Shown here: positions 1,772-63,425 of the stretch, piece by piece
Position numbering within the stretch: the first letter of the stretch is position 1
Layout: each line of letters starts with the position of its first letter
Assembly: GCA_022779465.1 (NCBI GenBank)
Contig: JALFTB010000001.1
Span: forward strand, 3,824-67,823
Direction of reading: 5' to 3'
Origin: a bacterium
Lineage (GTDB): Bacteria; Bacillota_I; Bacilli_A; RF39; UBA660
DNA length: 64,000 nucleotides
Program-made: the position numbers and the translations under genes
The notes under the pieces: generated by a model
What the model was told of the DNA's origin: nothing
Databases searched by the model: none
What the model saw: the letters and a program-made list of their open reading frames with translations, nothing else

Positions 1772-3571
1772 CTATTTATGGTGTCTCCTCTTCTTTTTGG
1801 GTTTTAGTTTTTTTATTGCTGTTTTTGTTAATATTAATAGTATATAGATTATTAAAATTATAATTAATATAATTTTAAATATATTATACATTGTTGATAA
1901 TATGATGGTTATTATATAATTGGTATTTAATTTTTTTGATGAAGATGAATGGTCTTTTACATTATCATATTGTTTAAAGTATTTTTTCACTTTGTTTAAC
2001 CATTTTGTTTTTATAAAATTATTATCTTCTTCATTATTTAATTTTAAGTATTTTTTTACCAATTTTTGAGTTTGGTTATCAACACTATATAATGATGGGG
2101 CAATAGTTGGAGCATGTTTACTTTGGTTATTTATTTTTTCATAAACTCCAGCTATATTTAAAAGCAGATTGTCGTCTCCTTTTAGACTCATAAATTCAAT
2201 TCCATATGGTAAGTTGTCTTGATCAAAACCTAATGGCATGGTTATAGATGGATAGCCTACAGCAGGTGATGCATGAGCCGCTATATTAACAATACCACTT
2301 TTATCAACTTTTAACAATTGATTTTTGGTAGTTGGATAAATTATTGCATCTAAATCGTTGCTTTTATAGATATTATTTAAATATACATCATAGTTTGTTA
2401 TTATTGTTTTTTTATTATCTTTTAATTCATTTGAGGTTCCACAATATTTTAAATACGTATCAATGTTTGTTATTTTGCCGTTTGACTTAGCTAAATCTTC
2501 GAATGTTCTTATACTTCCAGTTGTTCCTTTTAAATAATTATTTACGGCATTACAAAACAAATATCCACTATAAGAATTGTTTACATAGTAGTTTTGAGTA
2601 TTTGTAAAATATTCATCTAAATAAACTATTTTTGCTCCATTTTTTTCTAACAAACTTATAACTTTTTTAGCCATTTTGGTAATTTCTGAATATCCTTTTT
2701 TATTTTCTGTTAAATCAGATGATTCCGATCCATCTAAAAATAAAGTTGGAACACCAATTGTAATTTCTTTTAAATTTGATAAATTTGTTTTTATTTTGGT
2801 GTTATTTGAGGACATTATATTAGTTAATATAATAGAATCATTTAAAGTTTTTGTTAACGTACCTACAGTATCTCTATTGGGATCATATGGTAAAACGCCT
2901 TGATTACTAAATAAACCATATGTAGGTCTGTAACCAACAAGATTGTTGGCAGCGGCTGGTAGTCTGACTGATGAATTGGTATCAGTTCCTAGTGCTGCTG
3001 ATGCTAATGAGGCAGCTACTGCTACTGCTGATCCTCCTGACGATCCATAAGGGCTATAATCTAAATTATAAGCATTTTTTACAGTACCATATGAACTTTT
3101 AGATGAACTAGCATAGAATGCTAATTCTGACATATTTGCTTTGGCAATTATAATAGCACCGGCATCAATTAATTTTTGAATCACATCAGCGTTTTGCTTA
3201 GGATAATTATCCTTTAAAGATTTAGTACCAGATGTAGTTGGCATACCTAGTACGTCAATATTATCTTTAACAATAATAGGAATACCGTGAATAGATGATC
3301 TTACTTTACCATTTGTTCTTTCTTTATCTAACTCCTCGGCTTGGGTTAAAGCATTTTCATTAATGGATATTATGGCATTATAGTCCTTGTAAGCTTCTAT
3401 TCTTTCTAAATAGATATTAACTAGTTGTTTACTTGTAATTATATTATTATCTAGTGCCGTAGATATTTCTTCCATACTCATGGTTGTTATATCTATTGGA
3501 GCAGTTGTTTGGGCATAAATATTTATTGGGATTGAAATTAATATTAGTAATATTAGTTTTCTAATACGCAT
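1772..3571 (-). CDS. secreted amidase-signature (GatA-like) amidase with a C-terminal membrane anchor
   Basis: It carries the amidase signature [33 protein letters not shown]. The N-terminal signal peptide is [22 protein letters not shown]-terminal hydrophobic helix is followed by a [13 protein letters not shown] tail. Confidence 0.7.
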
Positions 3572-3998
3572 CTTTAATTGCTTTCTTTAGTTCTTTTTCT
3601 TTTAATGAAGCTCTTTTATCATAATTATGTTTGCCTTTACAAACTCCAATTTTTACTTTAGCTTTATTATTTTTTAAATATACTTCTAAAGGGATTAATG
3701 TATATCCTTCTTTATCACTATCTTCTTTTAATCTTTTAATTTCATTTTTATGAAGAAGTAATTTTCTAGTTCTCCTTTCTTCGTGATTAAATCTATTACC
3801 TTCGTCATATTTTGCAATAAACATGTTTAAAAGATAAGCTTCATCATTTTTAATTTTGGCGTATGAATCTTTAATATTAGCACTACCTTTACGTAGGGAT
3901 TTGATTTCGGTTCCTGTTAATACAATTCCAGCTTCTATTTCTTTATCAATAAAATAATCATAACTTGCTTTGCGGTTTTTTATTTCCACGTTTATCAC
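3561..3998 (-). CDS. smpB: SsrA-binding protein SmpB
   Basis: The 145 aa product carries the SmpB signature ([34 protein letters not shown]). Confidence 0.9.
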
Positions 3999-6099
3999 CC
4001 TCTAATAATACAAAATCAATTGTTGCTGCGGCTTTACTTGCTCCTATGCATTTAACTTTAACTTTATCGCCTAAACGATATCTTACTTTGGTATTTTGAC
4101 CAACTATAGAAAATAATTCTGGTACATAACTATAGTAGTCACCCTCTAATGTATTTATATGAATTAATCCTTCAATTAAATTTGATAAGCAGACAAACAT
4201 ACCAAAGTTGGTAACTGTACTAATAGTTCCTTCAAATACTTCTCCGATATGGTTTTCCATAAATTCTGCCATTTTCATATCATCTACTTCACGTTCAGCG
4301 TCGATAGCTGCTTGTTCTCTTTCACTAGAATTTAAAGCAATGTAATCTAAATTACTATCCCAATAATTAATGGTTTGGTTATCCATATTATTTTCAAAAA
4401 AGTAAGTTCTTAATAATCTATGAACTGTTAAATCTGGGTAACGTCTAATTGGGCTGGTAAAATGAGTATAGCATTTACTTCCTAAGCCAAAGTGTCCAAT
4501 ATTATCTTTTGAATAAACTGCTTTTTGCATTGATCTTAATAACAATTCTGATAAAATAGGAGTTTCTGGTTTATCTTGTAATTGAGCAAGAATTTTTTGG
4601 AAGCTGGTTGGTTTGATATCTTTAAATTTACCAACTATTTTATATCCCATTAAACTTACTAAATGAAGATAGTCATCAACTTTTTCTTTTTTAGGTTCCC
4701 CGTGAACACGATAAATAAATGGGACCCCCATGTTATAAGCATGACTTGCAACTGTTTCATTGGCTGCTATCATAAAGTCCTCAATTAGTTTTTCACCATC
4801 TTCTCTTTCAACTTTAATAATGTCTGTACATACACCATCTTTATCACAAATTATTTTTGGTTCATCGATATTAAAATCAATATATCCTCTATTTTCTTTT
4901 GCTCTTCTTAATATGTGAGCTAAATTATTCATTTCTTTTAAAGTATCTGCATATGGTTCATAATCTTCAGCAATGATATCTCTCATGATAATGTCATTAA
5001 CTTTTTTATATGTCATTTGTTTTCTTGATTTGATATAACTTGGGAAAATATCATACTTTATAATATTGCCTTTGTGATCGATGTTCATAACACAAGATAA
5101 AGTTAATCTGATAACGTTAGGATTTAATGAACAAATTCCATTTGATAATAAATGAGGTAACATTGGAATTACTGAATATGCTAGATATGAACTTGTTCCT
5201 CTTCTAAAGGCATCTTGATCTAAAGGACTATCTTTGGTTACATAATGTGATACATCAGCAATGTGAACGCCTAATTCAAAAGTACCATCTTTTAGTTTTT
5301 TATAACTTATGGCATCGTCTATATCTTTTGTATCATCGCCATCAATTGTAAAAATCATTTCGTTTGTTAAATCTTTTCTTCCTCTTAGTTCTGATTCTTG
5401 AACTTCAGTTGGAAAGTGTTCTGCTTGTTCTATTGCTTCTTTACTAAATTCTTCATATATTTCATGTTTATAGGCAATGGTTTTAATATCGACACCTGGA
5501 TCGTCTTTATGGCCGATGATACTTATAACTTTACCAATATAATTGTTTCTAGATTTTTCTTTTACTAAATTTACGACTACTTTAGTACCATCTACACAAT
5601 TATTAGTTGTATTTGGATCTAGTTCTACGGTAATTTTTTTCTTTTTATCATCTAAGATTAAGGTTGGCTTTTTATCTTTAAACAAGATTTCACCAATAAT
5701 ATTTTTAGTGTTTCGATTTAAAATTTTGACTACGCGACCTTCTTCTTTGCCTTTATATTTTATTAATTCAACAAGAACTTCGTCTCCATCTATTGCACTA
5801 TTTAGATTACAATAATCGATGTAAATATCTTCTCCTTCTTGTAAAAGAAAACCATTTCCGGCTTTATTAACGCTTAATTTTCCGACTTTAATTCCTGGGG
5901 CATTATCATATAAGATATATTTGTCTTTTTTAGTTTTAAATACTTTATATTCATTTACTAATTCTTCTAGTGTTAATTCTAATTGTTTTAATTCTTCGGC
6001 ACTTGATAGTCCTAACAAATCATTAATTTGAATTAAAGTTTGAGCCTCATGTTTGTCTTTTAATACTTCTAATATATTATTTTTCATACTATTCACCAT
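3958..6099 (-). CDS. rnr: ribonuclease R
   Basis: The 713 aa product has an RNB catalytic core and a C-terminal S1 domain. It sits in the conserved secG-rnr-smpB arrangement. Confidence 0.85.
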
Positions 6100-15246: not shown

Positions 15247-15320
15247 TGGAGGGGCCTACCGGATTTGAACCGGTGCTCAGGGAGTTGCAGTCCCTTGCCT
15301 TACCGCTTGGCTAAAGCCCC
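15247..15320 (-). tRNA. tRNA-Cys (anticodon GCA)
   Basis: The minus-strand sequence GGGGCTTTAGCCAAGCGGTAAGGCAAGGGACTGCAACTCCCTGAGCACCGGTTCAAATCCGGTAGGCCCCTCCA folds as a cloverleaf. It has a 7 bp acceptor stem, a GTTCAAATCC T-arm, a CT-GCA-AC anticodon loop and an encoded CCA. Confidence 0.85.
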
Positions 15321-20879: not shown

Positions 20880-21237
20880 TGGTGGAGCCGAGCAGAATTG
20901 AACTGCTGTCCAAAATACTTCCATAGTACAATCTACAAGTTTAGATAATTTGTTATTTCACTAGTAGGAAGAAAACTATCTAAATTACTACTAGCTAAGC
21001 TTTAAAATTTTCGTTAAACAAACTAAGCAATCTATTTAATATAATCTACTATTATGAACCAATTTAAAACTCTGTAGATTTAGTCTTAAACCAGTGCTCC
21101 GTGCCAACTATTAGGCAAATGCTAGAGCTGTATTATAATTTGTTTTGTCAGTTATTTTAACTGTTTTGCTATTTAGGATAGCAACCACTTGCATGTAAAA
21201 CAGAATATATATTTTGTCGAAACCAAAAAACGGCCCC
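20880..21237 (-). ncRNA. ssrA: tmRNA (SsrA)
   Basis: The 5' end reads GGGGCCGTTTTTTGGTTTCGAC and the 3' end GGACAGCAGTTCAATTCTGCTCGGCTCCACCA. The acceptor stem pairs with a G3-U wobble. The T-arm is CAGCAG-UUCAAUU-CUGCUG. An internal tag reading frame reads ...DKTNYNTALAFA and ends in tandem TAA TAG. No ORF is called across this 358 nt gap. Confidence 0.85.
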
Positions 21238-21574: not shown

Positions 21575-21618
21575 TCTCCGTATTATGATTATATCATTTT
21601 TTTGATTTTTTGAATTAA

Positions 21619-21861
21619 TTAATTTTTGACTTTACGCTTTTTTGGTAAAATTTTACACTTATTATTTAATAAGTATCCTAATATCAATGATATTTTTAAT
21701 ATATAATTTATAGTTCCATCATTTAATAAGTAAATTATATAAATATATAGAATTGTATGTATGACTGTTGTTATTAACATTTTAAAATTATTTAATTTTG
21801 ATATATATAAATAGAAATATCCAAATATAAAAGATATTAATATTAAAAATAACTGTTTCAT
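21619..21861 (-). CDS. yabQ: YabQ-like small membrane sporulation protein
   Basis: The 80 aa product has two TM helices and lies immediately downstream of yabP, overlapping it by 4 nt. Confidence 0.5.
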   Translation of the reverse strand: MKQLFLILISFIFGYFYLYISKLNNFKMLITTVIHTILYIYIIYLLNDGTINYILKISLILGYLLNNKCKILPKKRKVKN

Positions 21862-22139
21862 TTAAATAATTTTACTAATAAACTATTTTCTTTTTGAGAT
21901 ACCTCATTATATGAAAAACTATTTATTTTACCTTTTATAGATACATTACCATCTATTGTATCTAATTTTATTATTTCTAGGTTTTCACCTTTAATTATGA
22001 TATTGCCCATAATTGATTCCAGATTGAATTCTTTGTCATCAAAATTAATTATTTTTTTAATTCCACTTATAATAATATTTTTGCGATCATTTAATTTAAC
22101 AACATGTGTAAATGATGGTACATCGATTAGTTTATCCAT
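21858..22139 (-). CDS. yabP: sporulation protein YabP
   Basis: The 93 aa product shows the YabP pattern (IISGIKKIINFDDKEFNLESIMGNIIIKGENLEI). Confidence 0.7.
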   Translation of the reverse strand: MDKLIDVPSFTHVVKLNDRKNIIISGIKKIINFDDKEFNLESIMGNIIIKGENLEIIKLDTIDGNVSIKGKINSFSYNEVSQKENSLLVKLFK

Positions 22140-22191
22140 AAAAAAGCCTCCTATTAATTAATAATATGAGGCTAATCTATTAATATGACAA

Positions 22192-22449
22192 TTAAGCTGC
22201 TTTATTGTATTCTTCAATAATAGCGTCTTCAAATTGTTTACGAACATCTGGATTAATTGGATGAGCAATGTCTCTATATCCGCCTGTTGCAGTTTTTCTA
22301 CTAGGCATAGCTATAAACAAACCGTTGTCTCCTTCTATAACTCTAATGTCGTGTACAGCAAATGCATCGTCTAGTAATACAGAAGCAATTCCTTTCATAC
22401 GAGAGCCTTCTTTTTCAACTTTTCTAACGCTAACAGATGTAATTTTCAT
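22192..22449 (-). CDS. spoVG: septation/sporulation regulator SpoVG
   Basis: The sequence [12 protein letters not shown]...[24 protein letters not shown] is close to canonical SpoVG. The start is taken at MKIT. Confidence 0.9.
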
Positions 22450-22522
22450 AACATTCACTCCTTCTATTATACTGTCTTAGTTAATTTAATTTTAATCTAT
22501 TGTTCAACAAATTGCAATATAT

Positions 22523-22735
22523 TTATGATAAAAAGTTTATTATAATATCTTTACTTAAAATATCTGAGTACGAATAACTCTTTTTTTCTATACCATTAGA
22601 TACTATAAATACATGACTATAACATTCTGATATGTAGCCATAAAATATTTCATTTCTGTTTCTATTTTCTCTTGATGTAACTTTTATTTCTTGATTTAAA
22701 TGATTTCTTATATTTGTTTTAATTGATTCAATCAT
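22523..22735 (-). CDS. veg: Veg protein
   Basis: The 70 aa product shows the Veg signature (SRENRNRNEIFYGYISECYSHVFIV....SYSYSDILS). Confidence 0.8.
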   Translation of the reverse strand: MIESIKTNIRNHLNQEIKVTSRENRNRNEIFYGYISECYSHVFIVSNGIEKKSYSYSDILSKDIIINFLS

Positions 22736-23514
22736 CTTGGATACCCCACATACATAAGTCCATTACAAACAACTCCTCCCATTCCATCGGAACCATATTT
22801 GGTTTTATTTAAAAGTTCAATTAAATCTATTGTTTTCATTTTGTCGGTTAAAGCAATTGATGAAGCTATTATGGCAGGATCTAAAGCATGAATATTTACT
22901 CTTTTGGGACTAGATGCAAAATTTGCTCCACATTTAATTAATTCTTCATAATCGCTTTGACATGCACCAGCAATTATTATTAACTTGTCATGGTTTTTTT
23001 CATATTTTCTTGCTTTTTTAACTGATTCACAAAAATATTTTGAATTACGATAATTATTTAAATTTGTTTTAGAACCTTTCTTTGGATAATATGCATCATG
23101 ACCAGTTATTATGACAATGTCAGGATTACATTCTAATAAATATTTATTGATTTTATTTGGTAATTCTTCTTCACTTACAACTTTTCCAAAAGCTTTTAAA
23201 TTGTTTTGTTTATAATAATTTAGACATCTATTTAAATATTCTTCGTCACCATCGCAATGTAAAATTTTGGCTGGCATATAAAAGTATTCATTGCGATCTA
23301 AATTGTCATTATTGGTAACTTTGTATTCAAAATTATCTTTGCGATTTTCTGTATATAAAACTAAATCTTCAATCGGACTATCTGCATATAATCTGACATT
23401 TTCACCTTTTAAATAACAAACTCCATCTTTTATGTTTAAAATTTTAAATATTGTATCGTTATTATAACTTTTTCTTGTTACATAGTCGCCTTTTTTAAAG
23501 TTCATAGTTACCAC
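22732..23514 (-). CDS. yabG: sporulation-specific protease YabG
   Basis: The N-terminus FKKGDYVTRKSYNNDTIFKIL resembles the B. subtilis YabG start. It sits in the veg-yabG-ksgA synteny. Confidence 0.7.
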   Translation of the reverse strand: MVTMNFKKGDYVTRKSYNNDTIFKILNIKDGVCYLKGENVRLYADSPIEDLVLYTENRKDNFEYKVTNNDNLDRNEYFYMPAKILHCDGDEEYLNRCLNYYKQNNLKAFGKVVSEEELPNKINKYLLECNPDIVIITGHDAYYPKKGSKTNLNNYRNSKYFCESVKKARKYEKNHDKLIIIAGACQSDYEELIKCGANFASSPKRVNIHALDPAIIASSIALTDKMKTIDLIELLNKTKYGSDGMGGVVCNGLMYVGYPR

Positions 23515-23548
23515 CTTAATTAATATTTATGCAAAAAAAAAGCAAATA

Positions 23549-24340
23549 TTATTGCTTTAGTTTATTTGATATTTCAATATATACTTCTATTGGTATTTCT
23601 TCGGCACGATTATTTAGAGAATAGCCATTGGCTTCTAATACCGGAGAGATTATATCTAAATTAAAGTTTTTTAAATTGTTTCTTAAATTTTTTCTTTTAA
23701 ATTGGAATGCTGATTCAATTAAGTTATTAAAAATATTAAAATCTGTTTTCTCTTTATTATTTGGAGTTAATTTAATAATTGCACTGTCAACATTTGGTCT
23801 TGGATAAAAACAATTTTTACTTACATTAAATAATTTTTTTATGTCATAAAAATAATTAAGAAGTACGGTGATATAACCATAGTCCTTTGTTTTGGGCTTA
23901 GCTGATAATCGATCTGCTACTTCTTTTTGAACCATTAATACTAGTCCTTGAGGATTTATATTAGCAAAAGTAATCTTTTTTATAATCGGAGTGGTTATAT
24001 AATATGGGATGTTAGCTATTACATATAGATTTTCATATTTGATGGTAGATAAATCGGCTGTTAAATCAGCTTCTAAAAAGTCTTTAAAGAATATTTGGGT
24101 TTTCTCATTTTTAATGGATTCTAATTGTTCTTGAAGAGATTTATCTATTTCATAACAGATAATATTACAATTATATTTTTGAAGCCATTTTGTTAAATTA
24201 CCACTTCCGGGTCCCACTTCAATAATTAAATCATTTGGATTAGGACTTATTGATTTATATATTTTTTGTAATATGCCTTGATCATTTAAAAAATTTTGTC
24301 CATATTTCTTTTTAAAAATGTGTTCTTTCATATTAATCAC
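23549..24340 (-). CDS. rsmA: 16S rRNA (adenine1518/1519-N6) dimethyltransferase
   Basis: The N-terminus has KKYGQNFL and the SAM motif EVGPGSGNLT. Confidence 0.9.
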   Translation of the reverse strand: MINMKEHIFKKKYGQNFLNDQGILQKIYKSISPNPNDLIIEVGPGSGNLTKWLQKYNCNIICYEIDKSLQEQLESIKNEKTQIFFKDFLEADLTADLSTIKYENLYVIANIPYYITTPIIKKITFANINPQGLVLMVQKEVADRLSAKPKTKDYGYITVLLNYFYDIKKLFNVSKNCFYPRPNVDSAIIKLTPNNKEKTDFNIFNNLIESAFQFKRKNLRNNLKNFNLDIISPVLEANGYSLNNRAEEIPIEVYIEISNKLKQ

Positions 24341-27289: not shown

Positions 27290-27520
27290 TCTAAAAAAAA
27301 TTCATAAACTAAAGGACGACTTAATGCCGTGGTACCACCTTAATTCATGAATTTCATGCACTTATATCTTAACGCGATTATTACGTTTGAACTCCAGAAC
27401 CATATTCATTATCAATAAATAATTCTCTTTCACCAAGCAAGAACTCTCTTTGTATTTACTAAATAATTACTCTTTCCTTCTTCGTTCAATATAGTTCATT
27501 CTAACATAATATGTTGATTT
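27290..27520 (-). promoter_or_regulatory. T-box riboswitch leader of metG
   Basis: The minus-strand leader contains the T-box sequence AATTAAGGTGGTACCACGGCATTAAG (plus coordinates 27321-27345). A terminator helix and a U-run (plus-strand A-run near 27291-27298) lie just upstream of the metG RBS. Confidence 0.75.
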
Positions 27521-37126: not shown

Positions 37127-37136
37127 TTTACTCCTC

Positions 37137-37216
37137 AAAAAAAGCGCACATACATAGAGGCAAATATGGCTGCTTTCTTCCGAATCTGACCAGGTTATTG
37201 CGTTTGTATTGCGCAT
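37137..37216 (-). ncRNA. ffs: small (4.5S-type) signal recognition particle RNA
   Basis: The minus-strand RNA reads GCGCAAUACAAACGCAAUAACCUGGUCAGAUUCGGAAGAAAGCAGCCAUAUUUGCCUCUAUGUAUGUGCGC plus a U7 run. It contains the conserved domain IV motif (GGUCAG...GGAAG.AAGCAGCC) inside a long closing helix. A TTGAAA-N17/18-TATATT promoter lies at about 37222-37258. Confidence 0.75.
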
Positions 37217-37295
37217 ATATAATATAGCATATTTTAATTACAGATTTCAATAATTGGATTTTTACTAATTTTAAAAATTTGTATTTTTTATTTTT

Positions 37296-37914: not shown

Positions 37915-37945
37915 AAAAGGTAGCTTTTATGCTACCTCTTCGATT
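37915..37945 (-). terminator. gyrA rho-independent terminator (overlaps stop codon)
   Basis: The minus-strand stem GGUAGC-AUAAAA-GCUACC is followed by a U-run. Confidence 0.65.
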
Positions 37946-40500
37946 TCTTCTGGTTCGTTTAGTACTAAACTAATTGTTGATACTATTTGATTATCTTTTA
38001 AATTAATTAATCTTGTACCTTGAGTTACTCGACCTAACTGCGAAATTTGATCCAAAGGTATTCTTATAATTATTCCGTTATTAGTTATGATCATTAAGTC
38101 ATTATTTTCTTCAAATCGTTTAATTGCAGCAATATTTCCGTTCTTTTCAGTAATATTTAATGCTTTTACACCTTTACTACCACGTTTAGTCTTGCGGTAC
38201 TCACTGATATGTGTTTTTTTACCATAGCCTTTTTCAGTAACAATAATAATGTTGTCGTCTGCTTTTGCTGTTTCTAAGCCTACACATTTACCATTTTCTA
38301 AGCTAATTCCTTTAACTCCGCTTGCAGTACGTCCCATTACTCTAACTTCTTCTTCATTAAATACTGCAATTCTTCCAGTAGATGATGCCATTATAACATC
38401 GCATTCACCATCAGTCTTTTTAACTCCGATTAATTCATCATTTTCTTTTAAACTAATGCAAAGTTTTCCACTCTTTCTAATATTATCAAATTCTGCGATT
38501 CTGGTACGTTTTACTAGACCACTCTTTGTAGCAAATAATAAATATTTGCTATCATCTGATGGAGAATAACTTAACATTGATGTAATATGTTCATCCTTGT
38601 CAATTTGAAGTAAGTTAATAATTGGTATTCCTTTTGATGTTCTACCAAATTCAGGAATTTCATATCCTTTTACTCTATAAACCTTACCTTTATTCGTAAA
38701 GAATGTTAAATAATCATGTGTATTTAAATTTAGCAAGTATTCAACAAAATCTTCTTCGTTGGTTGACATTCCCTTTACACCTACACCGCCTCTATTTTGA
38801 AGTTTGTAGTTATCAACATTATTTCTCTTAATATATCCTTTATTTGTTAATGAAACTATTATGTTTTCTTGTGGGATAAGGGATTCATCTTCAATAAAGT
38901 CAATTGCAGTCATATCTATTGTTGTTCTACGATCATCAGAATATTTATTTTTAATTTCTGTTAACTCATCTTTAATTATTTGTAATACTCTTGCCTCACT
39001 AGCTAAAATATCTTTTAAATCAGCTATTATTTTTAATAATGCTGCTAATTCTTCATCAATTTTGCTTCTTTCTAAGCCGGTTAATCGTCTTAATTTTAAT
39101 TCTAAGATACTTTCTGCTTGAATTAATGATAAGTTAAATCTTTCTATTAATGTATTTTTAGCAATTTCATCAGTTTCAGCGTTTTTAATTATTCTAATTA
39201 CTTCATCGATATTATCTAAAGCAATTTTATATCCCTCTAAAATATGAACTCTATTTTCAGATTTATTTAAATCAAATCTAGTTCTTCTGATTATTACTTC
39301 TTTTTGATAATCAATATATTTAGATATAATGTCTTTTAAAGGTAATGTTTTTGGTGTTAATCCATCTAACATTAAGAACATTATACTGAAATTTGTTTGA
39401 AACTGAGTATGTTTATATAATTGATTTAATATTACTTGTGGATTTGCATCTTTTTTTAGTGTTATTGTAATTGTTAATCCATTTTTTAAGTCTGTATGAT
39501 AATCTGAGATACCATCTATTGTCTTATTATGAACTAATTCAGCAACTTTTTCTTGTAATTCTTTAGTATTTACACCATAAGGAACTTCAGTAATAACAAT
39601 ATTATTATGGCCTTTTACTTCTTCGATTCTTGCCTTACTTCTAATTATTATTGTTCCTTTTCCAGTTTCATATGCTTGTTTAATTCCTGAATTTCCAAGG
39701 ATTATACCACCAGTTGGAAAATCTGGGCCTTTGATAAAATTCATTAATCCAATAGTATCAATATCTGGATTATCTATATAAGCTATACATCCATCTATTA
39801 CTTCTCCTAGGTTATGTGGAGGAATATTTGTTGCCATACCTACGGCAATACCCATGGTACCATTTACTAATATATTGGGAAATCTTGATGGTAAAACTCT
39901 TGGTTCTTTAGTGGAATCATCAAAGTTTGGATCAAAATCTACAGTATTTTTATTAATATCTCTTAACATTTCAAGGGATATTTTTGATAATCTACCTTCT
40001 GTATAACGATATGCAGCTGCTGAGTCACCTTCGATTGTACCAAAGTTTCCGTGTCCATCAACTAGCATATATCTTTCTGCAAATTTTTGAGCTAATCTTA
40101 CCATTGCATCATAAATTGATGAGTCTCCATGTGGATGATAATGTCCCATTACGTATCCGACTGTTGTTGCAGATTTTCTATGTGGTTTATCTGGAGTATA
40201 TCCACATTCATACATAGACCATAAAATACGGCGATGTACTGGCTTTAAACCATCTCTTAGGTCTGGTAATGCACGGGAAGCAATTACGCTTACAGAATAG
40301 TCTAAAAATGATGATTTTACTTCTTCTACAATATTATTTTCTGTTATTTTATCTTTTCCAGTTAATTCAGTATCAATTAAAGAATATTCTTCATCAAATT
40401 CTTCTTCAGTATTATCAATATTTTCATCAATAATCTCAGGATTTTTATTGCTATCTAACTCTGGATTGTTAATAATATTATTTTTTTCTTCTTCTGTCAT
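37927..40500 (-). CDS. gyrA: DNA gyrase subunit A
   Basis: The 857 aa product has the catalytic Tyr region (AAYRYTEGRL) and a beta-pinwheel C-terminal domain with a GyrA box. Confidence 0.95.
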   Translation of the reverse strand: MTEEEKNNIINNPELDSNKNPEIIDENIDNTEEEFDEEYSLIDTELTGKDKITENNIVEEVKSSFLDYSVSVIASRALPDLRDGLKPVHRRILWSMYECGYTPDKPHRKSATTVGYVMGHYHPHGDSSIYDAMVRLAQKFAERYMLVDGHGNFGTIEGDSAAAYRYTEGRLSKISLEMLRDINKNTVDFDPNFDDSTKEPRVLPSRFPNILVNGTMGIAVGMATNIPPHNLGEVIDGCIAYIDNPDIDTIGLMNFIKGPDFPTGGIILGNSGIKQAYETGKGTIIIRSKARIEEVKGHNNIVITEVPYGVNTKELQEKVAELVHNKTIDGISDYHTDLKNGLTITITLKKDANPQVILNQLYKHTQFQTNFSIMFLMLDGLTPKTLPLKDIISKYIDYQKEVIIRRTRFDLNKSENRVHILEGYKIALDNIDEVIRIIKNAETDEIAKNTLIERFNLSLIQAESILELKLRRLTGLERSKIDEELAALLKIIADLKDILASEARVLQIIKDELTEIKNKYSDDRRTTIDMTAIDFIEDESLIPQENIIVSLTNKGYIKRNNVDNYKLQNRGGVGVKGMSTNEEDFVEYLLNLNTHDYLTFFTNKGKVYRVKGYEIPEFGRTSKGIPIINLLQIDKDEHITSMLSYSPSDDSKYLLFATKSGLVKRTRIAEFDNIRKSGKLCISLKENDELIGVKKTDGECDVIMASSTGRIAVFNEEEVRVMGRTASGVKGISLENGKCVGLETAKADDNIIIVTEKGYGKKTHISEYRKTKRGSKGVKALNITEKNGNIAAIKRFEENNDLMIITNNGIIIRIPLDQISQLGRVTQGTRLINLKDNQIVSTISLVLNEPEEIEEVA

Positions 40501-40510
40501 CGTTTACCTC

Positions 40511-42439
40511 CTAAATATCAAGATTTTGTGTAAATCCAGCATTAGCTTCGATAAATTTTCTTCTTGGCTCTACTTCTTCTCCCATTAATTGTGAGAATAC
40601 TTCATCTGCTGCTATACAATCATCTACAGTAATTCTTCTTAAAACTCTTTTATTTATATCCATTGTTGTTTCATTTAATTCATCTGGGTCCATTTCACCT
40701 AAACCTTTATTTCTAGTTATTTCAACTCTAGAACGTATATTTTCTGGTAAACTTGATATATATTTTTCTCTTTCTTCTTCAGTAAGAACATATTTTCTTG
40801 TTTTACCATGAGTTATTCTATATAAAGGTGGTTGTGCTGCATAAACATGGCCTTGTTGAACAATTGGTTTAAATAAGCGATAAAATAATGTTAATAATAA
40901 TACTCTAATATGAGCACCATCGACATCGGCATCGGTCATAATTATAATTTTGTTATATCTTAATTTAGAAATATCAAATTCTTGTCCTATTCCAGTACCA
41001 AATGCAGTGATAATAGAACGTATTTCTTCATTACTTAAGGCACGATCTAATCTATTTTTTTCAACATTTAATATTTTACCTTTTAATGGAAGAATAGCTT
41101 GAGTCATTGCGTCTCTACCTTCTTTAGCAGAGCCACCGGCTGAATCTCCCTCGACTATAAATATTTCGGTTTCTAATGGATCTTTACTTTTACAATCTGA
41201 TAATTTACCAAATGTATTTATTCTTTGTAAATCGCCTTTTCTTTCTATTTCTCTAGCTTTTTTAGCGGCATTTCTTGCACGAGAAGCAAGTAAAGCTTTA
41301 TCGATGATAATTTTAGCATCAGTTGGATTTTCCATTAAGAATCTATCGAATCCTTTAGAGAATACACTATCAGCTAGTTTTCTAACTTCTGAATTACCTA
41401 ATCTACCTTTGGTTTGTCCTTCAAATTGTGGATTTGGATGTTTACAAGAGATAATCATTGTTAAACCTTCTTTAACGTCATCTCCTGTTAATGATTCATC
41501 TTTTTCTTTTAATATATTATTTTTGCGGGCATAATTATTAATAATTCTTGTTAATGCTCTTCTTACACCCTCTTCATGAGTTCCACCATCGTGGGTATTA
41601 ATGTTATTAACAAATGAATAAATATTATCTGTATAACCATTATTGTATTGCATTGCAACTTCAAAGAAAATACCATCTTCTGATCCTTCTACATGTATAA
41701 TATCATCATGAATAGGTGTTTTATTTTGATTTAAATATTTTACATATTCCTTTATTCCACCTTCATATAAGAATGTTTCACCTGTAGTATCTTTTTCGTC
41801 ACGATCATCTCTTAGGGTTAATCTTAAGCCTTTATTTAAAAATGCTAATTCTCTAATACGAACTCTTAAAGTATCATAATCATAGATTTCTGTATCAAAT
41901 ATTTCTGGATCCGGTTTAAATGTTACAGTTGTTCCAGTTCTATTTTCTTCACATGTACCTATTTCAGTTAATTTTTGAACAGTTTTTCCACCATTTGCAA
42001 ATTTTGCTTCATAAATTTTACAATCTTTATAAACATTAACATTAACCCATTTTGATAATGCGTTAACTACTGAGGCACCTACTCCGTGAAGACCACCTGA
42101 TACTTTATATCCGCCGCCACCGAATTTACCTCCAGCATGTAGTACTGTGTATACTGTTTCTACTGTGGAAATACCTGTTTTTGGATGAATTCCAACTGGA
42201 ATACCTCTACCATCGTCTTTGACAGTTACAGAATTGTCTTTGTTAATAATTATTTCTATATTATTACAATAACCAGCTAAAGCTTCATCTATAGAGTTAT
42301 CTACAATTTCCCATACTAGATGATGTAAGCCTTTAACATCAGTAGTACCAATGTACATACCAGGGCGTTTTCTTACGGCTTCAAGACCTTCTAAAACCTG
42401 AATATCACTTTCTGAATAATGTTCTTTTTGTTCATTCAT
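40511..42439 (-). CDS. gyrB: DNA gyrase subunit B
   Basis: It has a GHKL ATPase, Toprim motifs EGDSAGG and [10 protein letters not shown], and is 642 aa. Confidence 0.95.
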
Positions 42440-43532
42440 ATTTCTTTACCTCTACTTTCTTGTTGGATATTTTTATTACACTACAATCTTTTAAAAGTTT
42501 TTTATTTACTTTATCAATATCAGTTGTAGTTATAAATATTTGAAAACTTTTTTTAAAATTAGCAATTAAGGTATTAATTTTTTTATTATCTAATTCACTA
42601 AATAAATCATCTAAAATTAAAATTGGAGTTTTACCAGTATTGTTAATACAATATTTTATTTCTGCTAATTTAAATGATATAATGGCATTTTTTTGTTCTC
42701 CTTCAGATAAATAATTTTTTGCTTCTTTGCCGTTTTCTAGTTCAAAGATAAAATCATCTAAGTGAATTCCAACGTGGGTCATACCATAATTTAAATCTCT
42801 TTTAAAACTTCTAGTGTATTCTTTTATTAAATCATCTTTGGTTTTATCATTATAATGAGATACATAATTAATTTTAAGATTTGATTTTTTTACTGATTTA
42901 TAAAATATTGGTTCTAAATATTCATTTATTTCATCAATATATTGTTTTCTGATATGATTTATTTTTAATCCGATATCAATTAATTTATCCGTCATTATAT
43001 CTAAATAATCTTTTGGTATAGTACTGTTAATAAGCATCGATTTTAAATACATATTACGTTGTTTCATGATTTTGTTGTAAATACTTAATAATTTTAAATA
43101 TTCATTATTAAATTCTGATAACTCCATATTTATTAGTTTACGATGAGTACTAGGATTGTCTTTAATCAATTTTGAGTCTTCTCTATTAAATAACACAACA
43201 TTTAATTTAGATATATAATCACTAATTTTAGTTACTGAAGAATTATCAATTTTAATATTTTTACCCTTTTTGTTAATGACAATTTTATAATTATTATAAA
43301 TTTTATCTTTAATTCTTCCTTCAATAACGGCAAATTCGTTATTATCTTTAATTAAATTTTGATCTTCATTAGTTCTAAATGATTTTGTTAAAGCTAAATA
43401 ATAGATTGCTTCAACTATATTTGTTTTTCCGACTCCATTGTTACCTATTATAATATTTTTATAATCTGAAAAATTTAAATCTAATTTATCATATGAACGA
43501 AAATTTGTAAGTTTTAGATTAGTGATTTTCAT
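42432..43532 (-). CDS. recF: DNA replication and repair protein RecF
   Basis: The N-terminus [14 protein letters not shown] has a Walker A (GNNGVGKTN). It overlaps gyrB by 8 nt. Confidence 0.9.
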
Positions 43533-43629
43533 TTTAAACCCTCTTTTAAAGTCATATATTAATAAAATAGGTATATCTGTGTCCCTATACCTATTTAATT
43601 ATATCATAAAATAAACTATGTTTAAACAA

Positions 43630-44079
43630 TTATTTACCCTTTTTTCGGTTTTTAAAAGCTGTTTCTAATGATAAAGATTTTAAATATTGATTTTGAATAA
43701 TTCTATATGAAGTATCTATTTCTATACATTCATTATTTAAAAATTCGATTATGCTTTTTTCGGATTTAGAATGAACTTTTTTGATGTTATTTACGTTGAT
43801 CCACGCACAATCTTTTAGTCTTGGTGAACAAGTTGGAAAAAATATAATGCTTTTATCTTCTTCAACTATAATTGGCGCTTTATAGTTAAAACCAGTTAAT
43901 GAATATGTGCCTTGAATTCGTCCAGAAATACTACTTCCGTAATATTTACAGTTAGAATCCATTATTTTTAGGATTTTTTCATCAACAATATAACATTCAT
44001 GGTCTTCATAAATTACAGTTTTCTTTTTTCCAATTGGTATTAATGCAAGCGTATTTTTGTTAATTTCATAATCTTTCAT
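43630..44079 (-). CDS. comK: ComK-family transcription factor
   Basis: The product aligns along its length with B. subtilis ComK. Matching segments include YEINKNTLALIPIG, NCKYYGSSISGRIQGTYSLTGFNYKAPIIVEEDKSIIFFPTCSPRLKDCAWINVNN and SYRIIQNQYLKSLSLETAFKNR. It is 149 aa, shorter at the C-terminus than ComK (192 aa). Confidence 0.8.
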   Translation of the reverse strand: MKDYEINKNTLALIPIGKKKTVIYEDHECYIVDEKILKIMDSNCKYYGSSISGRIQGTYSLTGFNYKAPIIVEEDKSIIFFPTCSPRLKDCAWINVNNIKKVHSKSEKSIIEFLNNECIEIDTSYRIIQNQYLKSLSLETAFKNRKKGK

Positions 44080-44117
44080 AACTTCACCCCCTGTTGGGAT
44101 ACAATTAAAACACTTTT

Positions 44118-44150
44118 TTTTGTCGAAATTTGTCGAATTTTGTCGAAAAT
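44118..44150 (-). promoter_or_regulatory. three tandem Spo0A-box repeats (TGTCGAA) at 10 bp phasing in the comK-like promoter region
   Basis: TTTGTCGAAA repeats sit at 44121-27, 44131-37 and 44141-47. All are perfect 0A-box heptamers in direct orientation, 40-70 bp upstream of the comK-like ATG. Confidence 0.6.
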
Positions 44151-44160
44151 TATGATTTTT

Positions 44161-44190
44161 TGCAAAAAAAAATGAGTTTTTGGCTCATTT
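44161..44190 (-). terminator. dnaN rho-independent terminator
   Basis: The minus-strand stem AAUGAG-CCAAAAA-CUCAUU is followed by a U9 run and abuts the dnaN stop. Confidence 0.65.
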
Positions 44191-45305
44191 TAATATGTTT
44201 TGATAGGTAAAATTAATTGAATTAGTGTTTCATCTTTAGCAGATTTTAAAATTATTGGACTTGAATCATTATTTAAGAAGATAATTAATTCTTCATCTTC
44301 AAAAGTTTTTAAAGCGTCAATCATATATTTTGAACTAAATGATATTGAAATATCTTGTTCATTTGATTTATTTATTAAAATACTTTCTTCTGATTTACCA
44401 ATTTCACTAGCATAAGAAGAAATTAATAATTCTGTGTTATTTGTTTCCATTTTAATGATATTTTTATCTTTATTTTGTGTTAATAAAGCTGCTCTATCTA
44501 TAGCATTGTAATAATCATTTAATGATGTTGTTATAACAAATTCAAATTTTGTTGGGATTAAATTGTTAGTATTTGGATAACTACCACTTAATAAACTAGA
44601 TTGGAAGATATAATTCATGTATTTAAATACTATTTTGTTATTAAATACATGGATTTCCACATCAGATTCATCTGTGATTAATTTATCTAATTCATTAATA
44701 TTTTTTCCTGGAATTACAATATCACGTGAATCATATGCATTATCTAATGTAATTGTTTTTTTAGCTAAACGATATGAGTCAGTTGCAACACATTCCATAA
44801 CATTTCCATTAATTTTTAAGTTAATTCCCGTTAAAATAGGTCTTGATTCTTGAGTTGAAACTGCAAATAATGTTTTATTAATTGCTTGTTTTAATGTAGT
44901 ACTGTTAATAACTATTGGGTTTTCCACTTCTTCTAAATTAATATCAGGATAATCAGCAGTATCTAAACAATTTAAATTATATATAGTTTTATCAGTACTA
45001 ATTATAATTTTTAATCCGTCTATAACTTCAATGTTGATATCTCCATTTGGTAATTTTCTAATTATCTCTAATAAATATTTACTTTGAATAACTATTTTTC
45101 CAGGAATAGCTATATTTTTGATTTTTTCTTTTGGGATAAAGTTTCTAATAGTTAAATCACTATCACTTGCTGTTAAGTATAAGCCCTCTTCTCTTAAATC
45201 AAACATAACTCCATTTAATATAGGAATAATATTCTTAGGAGAAATGGCTCTCATTACATTTGTTAAACTTTCTAATAAAACGTTTTTTTCAATTAATAAT
45301 TTCAT
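44190..45305 (-). CDS. dnaN: DNA polymerase III beta sliding clamp
   Basis: The N-terminus is MKLLIEKNVLLESLTNVMRAI and the 371 aa product has the three-domain clamp length. Confidence 0.95.
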   Translation of the reverse strand: MKLLIEKNVLLESLTNVMRAISPKNIIPILNGVMFDLREEGLYLTASDSDLTIRNFIPKEKIKNIAIPGKIVIQSKYLLEIIRKLPNGDINIEVIDGLKIIISTDKTIYNLNCLDTADYPDINLEEVENPIVINSTTLKQAINKTLFAVSTQESRPILTGINLKINGNVMECVATDSYRLAKKTITLDNAYDSRDIVIPGKNINELDKLITDESDVEIHVFNNKIVFKYMNYIFQSSLLSGSYPNTNNLIPTKFEFVITTSLNDYYNAIDRAALLTQNKDKNIIKMETNNTELLISSYASEIGKSEESILINKSNEQDISISFSSKYMIDALKTFEDEELIIFLNNDSSPIILKSAKDETLIQLILPIKTY

Positions 45306-46789: not shown

Positions 46790-47030
46790 TTCCTCACCCA
46801 CCTTAGTTTGCTTTCTTAAGTTAATTTTAAAACAATCCTGTGGAAAAATAAAGAATAAAAATGAAAAATTTGTTTTTCCAAAGTTTTTCCACAGCTTTAT
46901 CAACAAAACTCACCCTATTTTATCGCACTAAAAACACTTTTTCAACATTTTCCACAAAATAAAATTAACATTAATTTTTGAAATCCACATTTTCCAATTT
47001 TTGTAAAAAATGTGGAAAAATATTTGGCTG
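46790..47030. promoter_or_regulatory. oriC DnaA-box cluster upstream of dnaA
   Basis: TGTGGAAAA or TTTTCCACA-type boxes lie at 46839-47, 46885-93, 46948-56, 46981-89 and 47011-19. Confidence 0.65.
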
Positions 47031-53204: not shown

Positions 53205-54407
53205 ATGGAGTCACAAGTTCAAAATATAAATATTGATTTAATTATACCAAATAGATTTCAACCACGCCTTTCTTTTGACGAAAAAGCTTTAAATGAATTA
53301 GCTGAGTCTATTAAACAACATGGTATTATTCAACCTTTAATTGTAAGGCAACTTGCTGATAAATATGAAATTATAGCTGGTGAAAGAAGATATAAAGCAG
53401 CTACTTTGGCTGGGTTATCAACTGTTCCTGTTATTGTAACTAATTTGTCTGATGCTAAGAGCGCTGAAGTTGCTCTTGTTGAAAATATTCAACGTAAAAA
53501 TTTAAGTTCAATAGAAGAAGCACTTTCATATAAGAGAAAAATAGATAAAGATAATTTAACTCAAGAACAATTAGCTAAATTATTGGGATTATCTCAATCA
53601 ACAGTTGCTAATCGTTTAAGATTGTTAAATTTAAGTAATGAAGTTCAAGATGCCTTATTAAAAGAAAAAATAAGTGAGCGTCATGCAAGAAGTTTATTAC
53701 AAATAAGTGATAAAAATAAACAAACCGAATTATTAAATCGTATAATAACTGAAAGATTAACAGTTAGACAGTTAGATGAAATAATAAAAAAAGAATTATC
53801 TTCACCTAGCACTTATGCAGAGGAAATACCTAGTAATTTAGAACAGCCTTTATCTTCAGAACCGGAAGCTGAACCAATTCCAGAACAAATTCCTTCAACT
53901 CAAATTGAAAGTTTGGATGTTTTAGGTGATGATAATACTTTAGATAATTCAAATAATATATTTGATACTGAAATAGATGCTTCAATGCCATCAGAGACTT
54001 TAGAGGAAATAGATAAAGAACCACAACATGAAGAACCTATGAGTAATATTTTAAATTTCTTACAAAGTTTTAATAATTCAGCGCCTTCACTTGATGATGA
54101 ACCAACTAATATGCAAACTTTTGATGATGATGTATTTAATGATGTTCATAGCGCTTATGATTTAATCGATGATGCAAATAAAGATCCAGATATTGTAAAT
54201 TTAGATACTGTTAATGAATCAAGTGTAACATCTGATAATCAAGTTTTAGACGATGTTGTTCCTAGAATAAAATCTGGAGATATGAGTTCATTAAAGAAAG
54301 CATATCATGATTTACAAGATGAAGCAGAAAAAGCAGGCTTTAAAATAAGCATGGAAGATTTTGATTTTGAAGATTTATATCAAATGATAATTAAAGTTGA
54401 TAAGTAA
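53205..54407 (+). CDS. ParB/Noc-family CTPase with a long acidic disordered C-terminal tail
   Basis: It has the ParB N-terminal domain with the GERRxRA CTP-binding motif (IAGERRYKAATLAGLSTVPVIV) and an HTH (GLSQSTVANRLRLL). The last 200 residues are D/E/S/P-rich low complexity. No ParA/Soj gene is adjacent. Confidence 0.75.
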   Translation: MESQVQNINIDLIIPNRFQPRLSFDEKALNELAESIKQHGIIQPLIVRQLADKYEIIAGERRYKAATLAGLSTVPVIVTNLSDAKSAEVALVENIQRKNLSSIEEALSYKRKIDKDNLTQEQLAKLLGLSQSTVANRLRLLNLSNEVQDALLKEKISERHARSLLQISDKNKQTELLNRIITERLTVRQLDEIIKKELSSPSTYAEEIPSNLEQPLSSEPEAEPIPEQIPSTQIESLDVLGDDNTLDNSNNIFDTEIDASMPSETLEEIDKEPQHEEPMSNILNFLQSFNNSAPSLDDEPTNMQTFDDDVFNDVHSAYDLIDDANKDPDIVNLDTVNESSVTSDNQVLDDVVPRIKSGDMSSLKKAYHDLQDEAEKAGFKISMEDFDFEDLYQMIIKVDK

Positions 54408-59153: not shown

Positions 59154-59666
59154 TTGAAAAAAATACTAGTTATTATAGGAGTAATATTATTTTTATTAAG
59201 CATAAATTATAATAATAAAGAAGAAGTATTTATTCCTAAAGATTCTATTAGATTTAGAATAGTAAGTAATAGTATGAATGAAGTTGATTTAAAAACTAAA
59301 CAAGAGTTAAAAAGTTATATAGAAGATTATGTTTATGATATAGTAAGTGATGCTAAAAGTAGTGAAGAAGCGGATGAATTATTGGTTAATAATTTAGAAA
59401 AAATTAGCAAACATATTAATCAATATTTGAATTCTAACAACTATAAAATAGATTACGGTATAAATTATTTTCCAAGAAAGGTATATAAAGGAGTTGTATA
59501 TGAAGAAGGTATGTATAAATCTTTAGTAATAACTTTAGGAGATGGAAAAGGTTCTAATTGGTGGTGTGTTTTATTTCCACCATTATGTTTATTAGATGAA
59601 AATGAAACAACAGCAGATGTTGATTATCAATTATATGTTGCTAGAATAATTAAAGTATTTAATTAA
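59154..59666 (+). CDS. spoIIR: stage II sporulation protein R
   Basis: A signal anchor, RFRIVSNSMNEVDLK and the near-invariant NWWCVLFPPLC motif are present. The ORF uses a TTG start. Confidence 0.7.
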   Translation: MKKILVIIGVILFLLSINYNNKEEVFIPKDSIRFRIVSNSMNEVDLKTKQELKSYIEDYVYDIVSDAKSSEEADELLVNNLEKISKHINQYLNSNNYKIDYGINYFPRKVYKGVVYEEGMYKSLVITLGDGKGSNWWCVLFPPLCLLDENETTADVDYQLYVARIIKVFN

Positions 59667-62720: not shown

Positions 62721-63425
62721 TTGTTAGGAGTTGTGTCTGCAGAAATGCCTGCTTTGTTTAATATTGAAGCATTAAAAGCGCAAGTAGTTGCTTCTAGAAG
62801 TTTTATTTTAAGTCAAAGCAATGATAGAATTCTTAATACTACAAGTGGAGCTCAAGCTTATCAAGATTTATATGAACTAAGTAATAAGTGGAATGATAAA
62901 TATTATGAATATTTATCTAAAATGCAAAAAGCAATTGAGGAAACAAAAAATGAAGTAATAAAAAGAGATAATAAAATATTAAGGACATATTATTTTGCTA
63001 TGAGTAATGGATATACTGAAAATTCTCAAACTGTTTTTAAACAAGAACTATTTGAAAGTGTAAAATCTGATGAAGGAAGAGATACTAAATATAAAATAAC
63101 TTTAACTTTAGATGAATTTAAAAATAAATTAAATGTAGGTACAGTAAACATAGGTGAAATAAAAAGAAATAATACTAATCATGTAGATTATATTATGATT
63201 AATAATAATAAATATAGTGGGATTGATTTTAGAAAAAAGCTTAATTTAAGATCAACTGATTTTAATATTGAAATAAATAATAATAATGTTGTGATTGAAA
63301 CTAATGGTTATGGACATGGGGTTGGTATGAGTCAATATGGAGCTAATGCCATGGCAAAAAAAGGTTATAATTATAAAGAAATTCTTGAATATTATTATCA
63401 AAATATTGATATTTTAAAAATATAG
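62721..63425 (+). CDS. spoIID: stage II sporulation protein D (SpoIID/LytB domain); 5' end probably extends to about 62550
   Basis: The product has SpoIID signatures (LLGVVSAEMPALFNIEALKAQVVASRS, NGYGHGVGMSQYGA). The same frame stays open upstream to 62526 and encodes a signal anchor (KKIVLLILFLIPIYISSF) with no canonical start codon. Confidence 0.7.
   Translation: MLGVVSAEMPALFNIEALKAQVVASRSFILSQSNDRILNTTSGAQAYQDLYELSNKWNDKYYEYLSKMQKAIEETKNEVIKRDNKILRTYYFAMSNGYTENSQTVFKQELFESVKSDEGRDTKYKITLTLDEFKNKLNVGTVNIGEIKRNNTNHVDYIMINNNKYSGIDFRKKLNLRSTDFNIEINNNNVVIETNGYGHGVGMSQYGANAMAKKGYNYKEILEYYYQNIDILKI

Follow-up and report, generated by a model that had tools for sequence, protein, structure and literature searches.

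A short ComK-family gene lies between dnaN and recF behind a promoter with tandem candidate Spo0A boxes

We analyzed a stretch of 64,000 nucleotides of contig JALFTB010000001.1 (64 kb, hereafter "the window"), in which the interval between dnaN and recF is occupied by a gene for a 149-amino-acid (aa) protein of the ComK family. The called genes around it follow the order dnaA-dnaN-recF-gyrB-gyrA, as stated in a first-pass annotation of the same sequence, and rpmH-rnpA-yidC-jag-mnmE-mnmG diverge from dnaA on the other strand. The cluster of DnaA boxes between dnaA and rpmH, together with a change of sign of the GC skew between 44 and 48 kb of the window, places the start of comK (position 44079) ~2.8 kb from oriC, in line with the origin-proximal location that the annotation had proposed. 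In model Firmicutes, the usual occupant of the dnaN–recF slot is the S4-like gene yaaA/rlbA, and B. subtilis indeed carries yaaA (BSU00030) there, so the annotation was also right about what holds this slot elsewhere. The gene found here shares with yaaA/rlbA the chromosomal slot and a similarly small size but belongs to an unrelated family, with ComK matched instead of the S4 domain. No S4/yaaA-type gene was found by Pfam among the called genes of the window, and tblastn with a YaaA sequence gave no match in the window or in 86 related loci (L001–L086). This comK-for-yaaA swap stands out against a conserved gene-order background: the window (~25% GC) keeps a B. subtilis-like order in tadA-dnaX-ybaB-recR, holB-yaaT, and pth-mfd-spoVT-like, as well as in metS-tatD-ksgA-yabG-veg-spoVG-yabP-yabQ-like-divIC.

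Table 1 Features at and around the comK-like gene, in window coordinates (a point marks features without an assigned strand).
Feature	Position	Strand	Description
gyrA	37927..40500	-	
gyrB	40511..42439	-	
recF	42432..43532	-	downstream neighbour; SMC_N, AAA_23
Conserved hairpin AAAUAGGUAUA-N10-UAUACCUAUUU with U-rich tract	43565..43596	-	-12.1 kcal/mol, z -4.06; comK–recF spacer
recF promoter, extended -10 TGaTATAAT	43598..43606	-	TTTAAA-17-TATAAT with TG; starts 24 nt after comK stop; fair -35
comK-like gene	43630..44079	-	short-form ComK family protein, 149 aa; ATG start; mechanical open reading frame with PF06338 match
Ribosome-binding site GGGGGTGA	44084..44091	-	5 nt 5' of comK ATG; direct sequence reading
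comK extended -10 TGtTTTAAT	44104..44112	-	no -35 hexamer at 16-18 bp
Three tandem exact 0A-box repeats	44121..44147	-	TTCGACA on gene strand; TGTCGAA on + at 44121, 44131, 44141; period 10 bp
K-box-like AAAA-N5-TTTT, 8 bp, AAAA-N5-TTTT	44147..44180	.	1 mismatch; overlaps dnaN terminator
Terminator-like hairpin with U9 run	44164..44191	-	directly after dnaN stop; 8-bp stem, nine U, -5.5 kcal/mol
dnaN	44190..45305	-	upstream neighbour; three DNA_pol3_beta domains
dnaA	45419..46789	-	just beyond dnaN
oriC DnaA-box cluster	46839..47019	.	between dnaA and rpmH; TTTTCCACA x4 and TTATCAACA, each one mismatch from consensus

The product was assigned to its family by profile search: Pfam PF06338 (ComK) matched the 149-aa protein at 127.7 bits (E = 4.1e-37), against a cut-off of 22.3 bits, with protein residues 2–146 aligned to model positions 2–151/152. 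ComK was the sole significant Pfam family, with no S4 or S4_2 RNA-binding domain. The ComK call of the first-pass annotation, which thus reaches family-level significance, and its remark that the protein is shorter at the C-terminus were both upheld. Both motifs that it had quoted, NCKYYGSSISGRIQGTY and IIFFPTCSPRLKDCAWIN, are present in the product, and the core motifs C-x-[YF]-x-GSS-x-x-GR, FFPT-x-S, and W form invariant columns in an alignment of 22 sequences. In a BLASTP comparison with a B. subtilis ComK sequence, window residues 1–145 aligned to ComK 9–157 of 192 (E 3e-29). The two proteins thus have in common PF06338 over the whole domain, 33% identity over 145 residues, and the GSSxxGR and FFPTxSP motifs, while the product here is shorter by ~8 N-terminal and ~35 C-terminal residues, the alignment ending at residue 157 of 192. 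A public record of the protein (MCI6763290.1) had already been automatically named "competence protein ComK [bacterium]". At the position of the ribosome-binding site, GGGGGTGA or GGAGGTGA is kept in nearly all related loci. A sequence search of PDB chains returned no relative of the product and no solved ComK structure. An AlphaFold model of the product is confident (pLDDT 92.2), and its best matches among solved structures are LytTR DNA-binding domains (AgrA and pneumococcal ComE), which are weak (Foldseek E 4e-3 to 4e-2; TM 0.5–0.59 on the target) and hint that ComK and LytTR may be distantly related in fold.

The clearest regulatory signal at the comK-like gene, overlooked in the first-pass annotation, is a set of candidate 0A boxes in its promoter, over the -35 region. 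The dnaN–comK spacer, which reads TTTTCGACAAAATTCGACAAATTTCGACAAAAAAAAGTGTTTTAAT on the gene strand, contains three tandem exact copies of TTCGACA. Relative to a start site predicted near 44097, they occupy roughly -44..-50, -34..-40, and -24..-30, and the most proximal copy ends 11 nt before the extended -10. TGTCGAA is the published core of the 0A box, and two boxes 3 bp apart form a Spo0A dimer site (PMC2731898); the specificity of Spo0A is common to B. subtilis and C. difficile (PMC3485338), and in B. subtilis Spo0A~P binds the comK promoter directly (PMC3297582). The boxes in the window conform to both the published core and the arrangement with a 3-bp gap, and are located on the core promoter or immediately upstream of it, which suggests that the protein bound by these repeats is Spo0A. 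Exact TGTCGAA occurs eight times in the 64 kb, compared to 2.9 expected; three of these eight copies are in the comK promoter, and the window has no other intergenic copy. Spo0A boxes in the promoter are also a feature of B. subtilis comK (PMC3297582), in which, however, they are five, imperfect, and scattered, whereas the three found here are perfect and in tandem. Two further readings were considered and rejected: a perfect TTTGTCGAAA at position 21213, taken as another Spo0A site, lies inside the gene for transfer-messenger RNA (tmRNA), and a CodY box, matched by the repeats at 12 of 15 positions by eye, is at odds with the conserved C, G, and C of TTCGACA, which are mismatches to the CodY consensus.

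The same signal recurs across the clade. In the dnaN–comK spacers of 81 loci, exact copies number 91 in sense and 2 in antisense orientation, at a density of 8.2 per kb compared to ≤0.2 per kb in every other segment, i.e., 0A-box repeats are enriched ~40–100-fold in comK promoters. At least one box within 1 mismatch was detected in 68 of the 81 loci, neighbouring boxes are spaced by 10 bp in 64 of 74 pairs, and the distance from box to -10 is fixed at 11, 21, or 31 nt across loci. Anchored on the -10, these promoters yield the consensus TTTTCGACAAatTTcgACAAaTTTtgacAAa.tttT.TG.TATAAgag. The distal box (-44..-50) is the best conserved and the proximal one (-24..-30) the least, such that the best-conserved pair spans -34..-50.

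The core promoter downstream of these boxes is of a weak type. An anchored alignment of 56 related comK promoters gave the consensus TGnTATAAG or TGnTTTAAT, with a -10 hexamer that is never TATAAT (TATAAG in 31 loci, TTTAAT in 15), often a G at -7, and a best -35 match of ≤2/6 in 52 of the 56. Upstream, an equivalent of the hairpin and T-run that follow dnaN in the window was seen in most related loci; the window copy is too AT-rich to have been picked up by a simple terminator scan. Downstream, the extended -10 of recF (TGnTATAAT) recurs in 75 of 76 related loci, with a recF start predicted near 43591, and is followed by the conserved hairpin of the comK–recF spacer, for which we counted eight consensus pairs, including two with compensatory changes (UA/AU 15:14; AU/CG+GC 17:11). 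The loop of this hairpin often contains GGAG, and the structure was seen at the same position in L007–L086; an Rfam search returned no family for it or for anything else near comK. It is likely a terminator of comK read-through, and its stem (GGUAUA...UAUACC) would lie flush with the 5' end of the recF mRNA, where it could perhaps also serve as a stabilising stem-loop. Because a terminator-like hairpin and a dedicated promoter precede comK, and recF has a strong promoter of its own, comK is predicted to be an insulated unit that is not co-transcribed with the replication genes. The first-pass annotation had placed comK inside the replication cluster; such a location does not imply membership of the replication operon. 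A hairpin in the 5' untranslated region that would sequester the comK ribosome-binding site was considered and rejected, as it was not significant (z -0.87). Insertions between dnaN and comK were observed in two loci: L046 carries at 3146..4428, on the opposite strand, an extracytoplasmic function (ECF)-type sigma gene (159 aa) and a putative anti-sigma gene (268 aa), with the three-box comK promoter still attached to comK, and in L059 this place is taken by a repeat-containing insert of 0.5 kb.

We then considered how widely this arrangement is shared. The exact 149-aa protein occurs on hundreds of metagenome contigs, with the same neighbours in 6 of the 6 places displayed. Scanning a single genome for each GTDB species with a subfamily-specific peptide pattern identified 149 species with a relative. 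Among these, the best 80 loci were compared, and in all 80 dnaA-dnaN-comK-recF-gyrB-gyrA lie on one strand as far as the contigs reach, over a range of ComK identities from 94% to 42%. Four further members (Candidatus Ventrenecus P0113, P0223, P0206, and P0156), chosen independently because they lack the peptide pattern of the scan or are more distant, have comK in the same slot in 4 of 4 cases. The open reading frame is intact and 147–162 aa long wherever a contig covers it, except in L082, where it is interrupted by N bases. In pairwise comparisons, ComK divergence correlates with the divergence of DnaN (r 0.78) and of RecF (r 0.81) roughly as closely as DnaN and RecF correlate with each other (r 0.88), and the comK dN/dS ratio has a median of 0.20, falling to 0.03–0.08 for unsaturated pairs and to 0.03 for the closest pair. 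The clade-wide arrangement, the co-divergence with DnaN and RecF, and the low dN/dS together point to a single ancient event that would have been followed by vertical inheritance under purifying selection. Hence, the gene is not "inserted" in the sense of a recent event, as the first-pass annotation could be read: the arrangement is present in all 84 related lineages examined and was inherited with dnaN and recF, and close relatives with yaaA in the slot, the case named there as one that would strip the placement of meaning, were not seen in the synteny of these lineages, which have comK there instead. A literature search retrieved no paper describing comK between dnaN and recF.

Several observations bear on the type of host. 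Sporulation-specific genes in the window encode SpoIIR, SpoIID, YabP, the YabG peptidase, and SpoVG; these genes and the one for Veg fall within 59154..59666, 21600..24340, and 62721..63425, and SpoIIR is encoded ~12 kb from oriC. Peptidoglycan genes are also present (class A penicillin-binding protein, FemAB, and MurA), and related records come from gut samples, under the labels uncultured Bacilli, Tenericutes, or Erysipelotrichaceae. The clade is one of AT-rich, reduced-genome, sporulation-gene-bearing gut Bacilli, probably similar to RF39, and its traits fit the group of RF39, RFN20, and ML615J-28. These lineages are predicted to include walled, spo0A-positive spore formers, with RF39 noted for spoVG and extra stage II genes (PMC10868615). 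Our literature search found nothing linking RF39 with natural competence.

Taken together, the best explanation of these patterns, to which we assign a probability of roughly 60%, is that the gene encodes a ComK-family regulator gated, and probably activated, by Spo0A~P. In an ancestor of the clade, a short ComK gene would have taken the dnaN–recF slot that belongs to yaaA in model Firmicutes. The hairpin after dnaN would end upstream transcription, comK would start from its own weak sigma-A-type promoter, and the downstream hairpin would end the comK transcript before recF restarts from its strong promoter. Phosphorylated Spo0A would bind the three helically phased 0A boxes (-24 to -50) and thereby gate comK transcription, activating it in the manner of spoIIG and spoIIE. 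By binding at A/T-rich sites, the short ComK would in turn induce or modulate a post-exponential programme, with competence or the K-state as the default expectation for the regulon of a ComK-family DNA-binding regulator, by analogy with its family. Observed in the sequences are the family, the conserved position, the separate transcription signals, and the identity, enrichment, and phasing of the motif together with its separation from DnaA boxes, while we infer which protein binds the boxes, in which direction it acts on comK, and which genes the product controls. A number of observations weigh against it. The spo0A gene is not in the 64-kb window, which is the only sequence examined for it, and none of the late competence genes comE, comF, comG, and dprA is in the window either, such that a competence role is argued by family analogy only. 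No box within one mismatch was found in 13 of the 81 related promoters, and more distant members keep one box or, as in L092, none. Furthermore, the loss of the ~35-residue tail means that the output of the protein is perhaps not classical activation, the proximal box lies in the promoter spacer, 0A boxes are also able to repress when they overlap a core promoter, an example being phi29/Nf A2c (PMC2731898), and the conservation of position perhaps merely reflects the extreme synteny of the origin region.

This last point leads to the alternative that fares best, to which we give slightly less than even odds: the position may have no regulatory meaning, comK having replaced yaaA once and been kept in place because the rpmH-dnaA-dnaN-recF-gyrB-gyrA block almost never rearranges. 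Indeed, every locus shows the same collinear block between rnpA/rpmH and gyrA, comK is equipped with a promoter and terminators of its own and shows no visible dependence on its neighbours for expression, and the sigma/anti-sigma insertion in L046 left its promoter undisturbed. On the other hand, in the 84 lineages examined the short-ComK subfamily was seen at no other place, spoIIR of the window likewise lies near the origin, and the origin-proximal placement of comCDE and spoIIR is known to matter, via gene dosage or forespore-first segregation (PMC5034851). In S. pneumoniae, the dosage of the origin-near comCDE and comAB genes rises under replication stress and triggers competence (PMC5034851). 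The locus described here resembles this system in that a competence-family regulator is encoded no more than a few kb from oriC; however, the proteins are unrelated (a LytTR two-component system there, ComK here), and positive feedback and a response to replication stress are pneumococcal features to which nothing points in the window. In its location, the gene also differs from comK of B. subtilis, which is far from the origin, whereas the gene here lies next to oriC in the yaaA slot. A gene-dosage effect may follow from this position. Since the chromosomal block is so syntenic, a frozen accident is as plausible as a functional position. A bolder version of the latter, which we regard as improbable, holds that the short ComK is a developmental regulator set off by Spo0A, with an output that requires adjacency to oriC. 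This could possibly operate via dosage or early capture in the forespore, by analogy with spoIIR and pneumococcal comCDE, or possibly by acting on the origin and the replication genes, i.e., by arresting replication at the onset of sporulation or the K-state and thereby filling the role that SirA has in Bacillus. If the position is functional in this way, the absence of the C-terminal region for activation and turnover would mean that control has moved wholly to Spo0A-driven transcription.

The next alternative concerns the protein itself, which may not be an activator of competence: the short ComK could be a repressor or a differently wired regulator, similar to ComK2 of B. cereus, or could control a function other than DNA uptake. 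We consider this a tentative possibility, somewhat behind the previous one. Searching a library clustered at 50% identity retrieved 1818 representatives at E ≤ 1e-3, of which most of the approximately best 100 are 146–157 aa long and match end to end, while canonical ComK forms of 185–200 aa appear mostly from E ~1e-33 onward and align at residues 10–158. Similarly, a profile of more distant members retrieved 1155 proteins, with lengths of 146–176 aa throughout the best 120. These searches delineate a short ComK subfamily of ~146–160 aa, whose homologues all carry PF06338. In B. subtilis ComK, deletion of 25 C-terminal residues is reported to keep DNA binding and abolish comG activation (Susanna 2006 as cited in PMC3128618, PMC3536758), and the C-terminal 25–35 residues reportedly required for this activation are missing from the 149-aa product. 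The short form is therefore predicted to have a complete DNA-binding domain and to lack the known activation tail. ComK2 of B. cereus, likewise without a C-terminal stretch that matters for activation (22 residues), is reported to reduce the expression of comG (PMC3128618), and the search of NCBIfam with the 149-aa product gave no match to an equivalog model, both of which would fit a protein that is not an activator. However, ComK2 is a second copy beside a full-length ComK1, whereas the short form described here, with ~35 residues missing and a fixed origin-proximal position, is the only ComK type detected in these lineages by the searches made here. In addition, its Pfam domain is whole and highly conserved, and the strong purifying selection on comK is equally compatible with either role.

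If Spo0A does bind the repeats, the sign of its effect becomes the next question. Repression would imply that boxes from -24 to -50 exclude RNA polymerase, with comK on during growth and off at entry into sporulation. As precedents, Spo0A on two boxes 3 bp apart over the core promoter blocks polymerase at phi29/Nf A2c (PMC2731898), and at B. subtilis comK the box R1, which overlaps the -35, has a repressive effect (PMC3297582); furthermore, promoters with an extended -10 can function without a -35, and the proximal box here is inside the spacer. We nonetheless consider repression unlikely, and activation the better supported of the two by a modest degree, because the core promoter is systematically sub-optimal (never TATAAT, often G at -7, no -35), in contrast to the near-consensus promoter of recF, and because the helical register between the boxes and the -10 is fixed. 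This single-bp register (11, 21, or 31 nt), which is maintained across divergent species, is more typical of an activator contacting one face of the helix, and the proximal box, which would occlude polymerase the most, is the least conserved of the three, while the pair at -34..-50 is conserved best. Activation would also be consistent with the layout of Spo0A-activated promoters. At spoIIG and spoIIE, 0A boxes lie over a mis-spaced -35; the comK promoter shares with this type tandem 0A boxes over the -35 region and the lack of a properly spaced -35, and has the TCGACA of its middle box 21 nt from the -10. It differs from spoIIG in that its boxes are perfect matches to the consensus, while those of spoIIG are described as weak, and in having a third box in the spacer.

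The two remaining alternatives, both of which we regard as very unlikely, replace Spo0A with another protein. In the first, the repeats are degenerate DnaA boxes, and comK is controlled by DnaA and coupled to the initiation of replication. The gene lies 2.8 kb from oriC, and TTTTCGACA is one base from this organism's own oriC box, TTTTCCACA. Among relatives, 9 of 81 promoters have the consensus DnaA box TGTGNATAA immediately 5' of the repeats, and 24 of 81 have the relaxed form TGT[GT]NATAA, with TTGTGGATAA in L090. However, the two motifs are sharply partitioned in the relatives: the two oriC regions contain 185 TTCCACA and 14 TTCGACA (141 and 14, respectively, in the dnaA–rpmH region), compared to 3 and 88 in the comK promoter, and because of this partition TTCCACA and TTCGACA appear to address two different proteins. 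Moreover, true DnaA boxes, where present, differ from the repeats in sequence and have the opposite orientation, the head-to-tail tandem of 7+3 bp is the Spo0A arrangement (PMC2731898), and the comK promoter of the window (44080..44189) has no match to the DnaA box (TTATNCACA) within 1 mismatch. The coupling to replication status that the first-pass annotation had suggested is accordingly not apparent in the window, and receives partial support from the relatives that do have a consensus DnaA box. Among these upstream elements, TTGTGGATAA was observed just upstream of the first 0A box and in opposite orientation in L030, L049, L050, L076, L079, and L090, and loci of the L038–L055 range carry the near-consensus DnaA forms TGTTGATAA or TGTTAATAA upstream of the first 0A box. 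A DnaA box and the adjoining 0A box can form an inverted repeat, TGTTGAT-AA-ATCGACA, which is absent from the window.

In the second, the repeats would be sites of the short ComK itself (direct repeats rather than K-boxes) in a positive or negative autoregulatory loop, as might be proposed from the autoregulation of B. subtilis ComK (PMC3297582), the lack of conservation of canonical K-boxes in these promoters, and a predicted fold weakly similar to that of LytTR domains, which bind direct repeats, but TTCGACA coincides exactly with a site that is well defined for a different protein, the period of LytTR sites is ~21 bp and not 10, and the motif occurs nowhere else in the intergenic DNA of the window. 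The K-box-like sequence of the window was itself rejected as evidence of autoregulation and is probably incidental: it is a near-match that shares sequence with the dnaN terminator and lacks conservation across the clade, with a perfect type-I K-box in L001 and a match with ≤2 mismatches in 9 of 81 loci only. In this, the promoter differs from that of B. subtilis comK, as it has no conserved K-boxes for autoactivation.

Other features of the window were recorded alongside. The recF and gyrB genes overlap by 8 nt (42432..42439) with no small gene of the remB/yaaB type between them, unlike in B. subtilis. A ParB-like protein of 400 aa (ParB_N and HTH_ParB), longer than typical Spo0J or Noc, is encoded at 53205..54407, after rsmG, and no adjoining ParA/Soj gene was found among the called genes. 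RNA genes include the tmRNA (20880..21237), a T-box leader upstream of metS (27309..27491), a small signal recognition particle RNA (37129..37225), and one tRNA (15250..15320).

ComK and its control by Spo0A were already known in B. subtilis, and what this analysis adds is a short comK that is origin-adjacent across a clade and has a promoter with tandem candidate 0A boxes. If the position is a frozen accident, the finding shrinks to an ordinary lineage-specific variant of gene order. Very little is known about the control of competence or the K-state in uncultured, reduced-genome gut Bacilli related to Mollicutes, and the combination of an origin-adjacent, tail-less ComK with a stripped-down promoter containing three perfect boxes suggests a minimal Spo0A-to-ComK circuit in these bacteria. 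Such a circuit would bear on whether abundant lineages of the human gut can take up DNA, and on whether an origin-near gene position may act as a regulatory input outside of streptococci.

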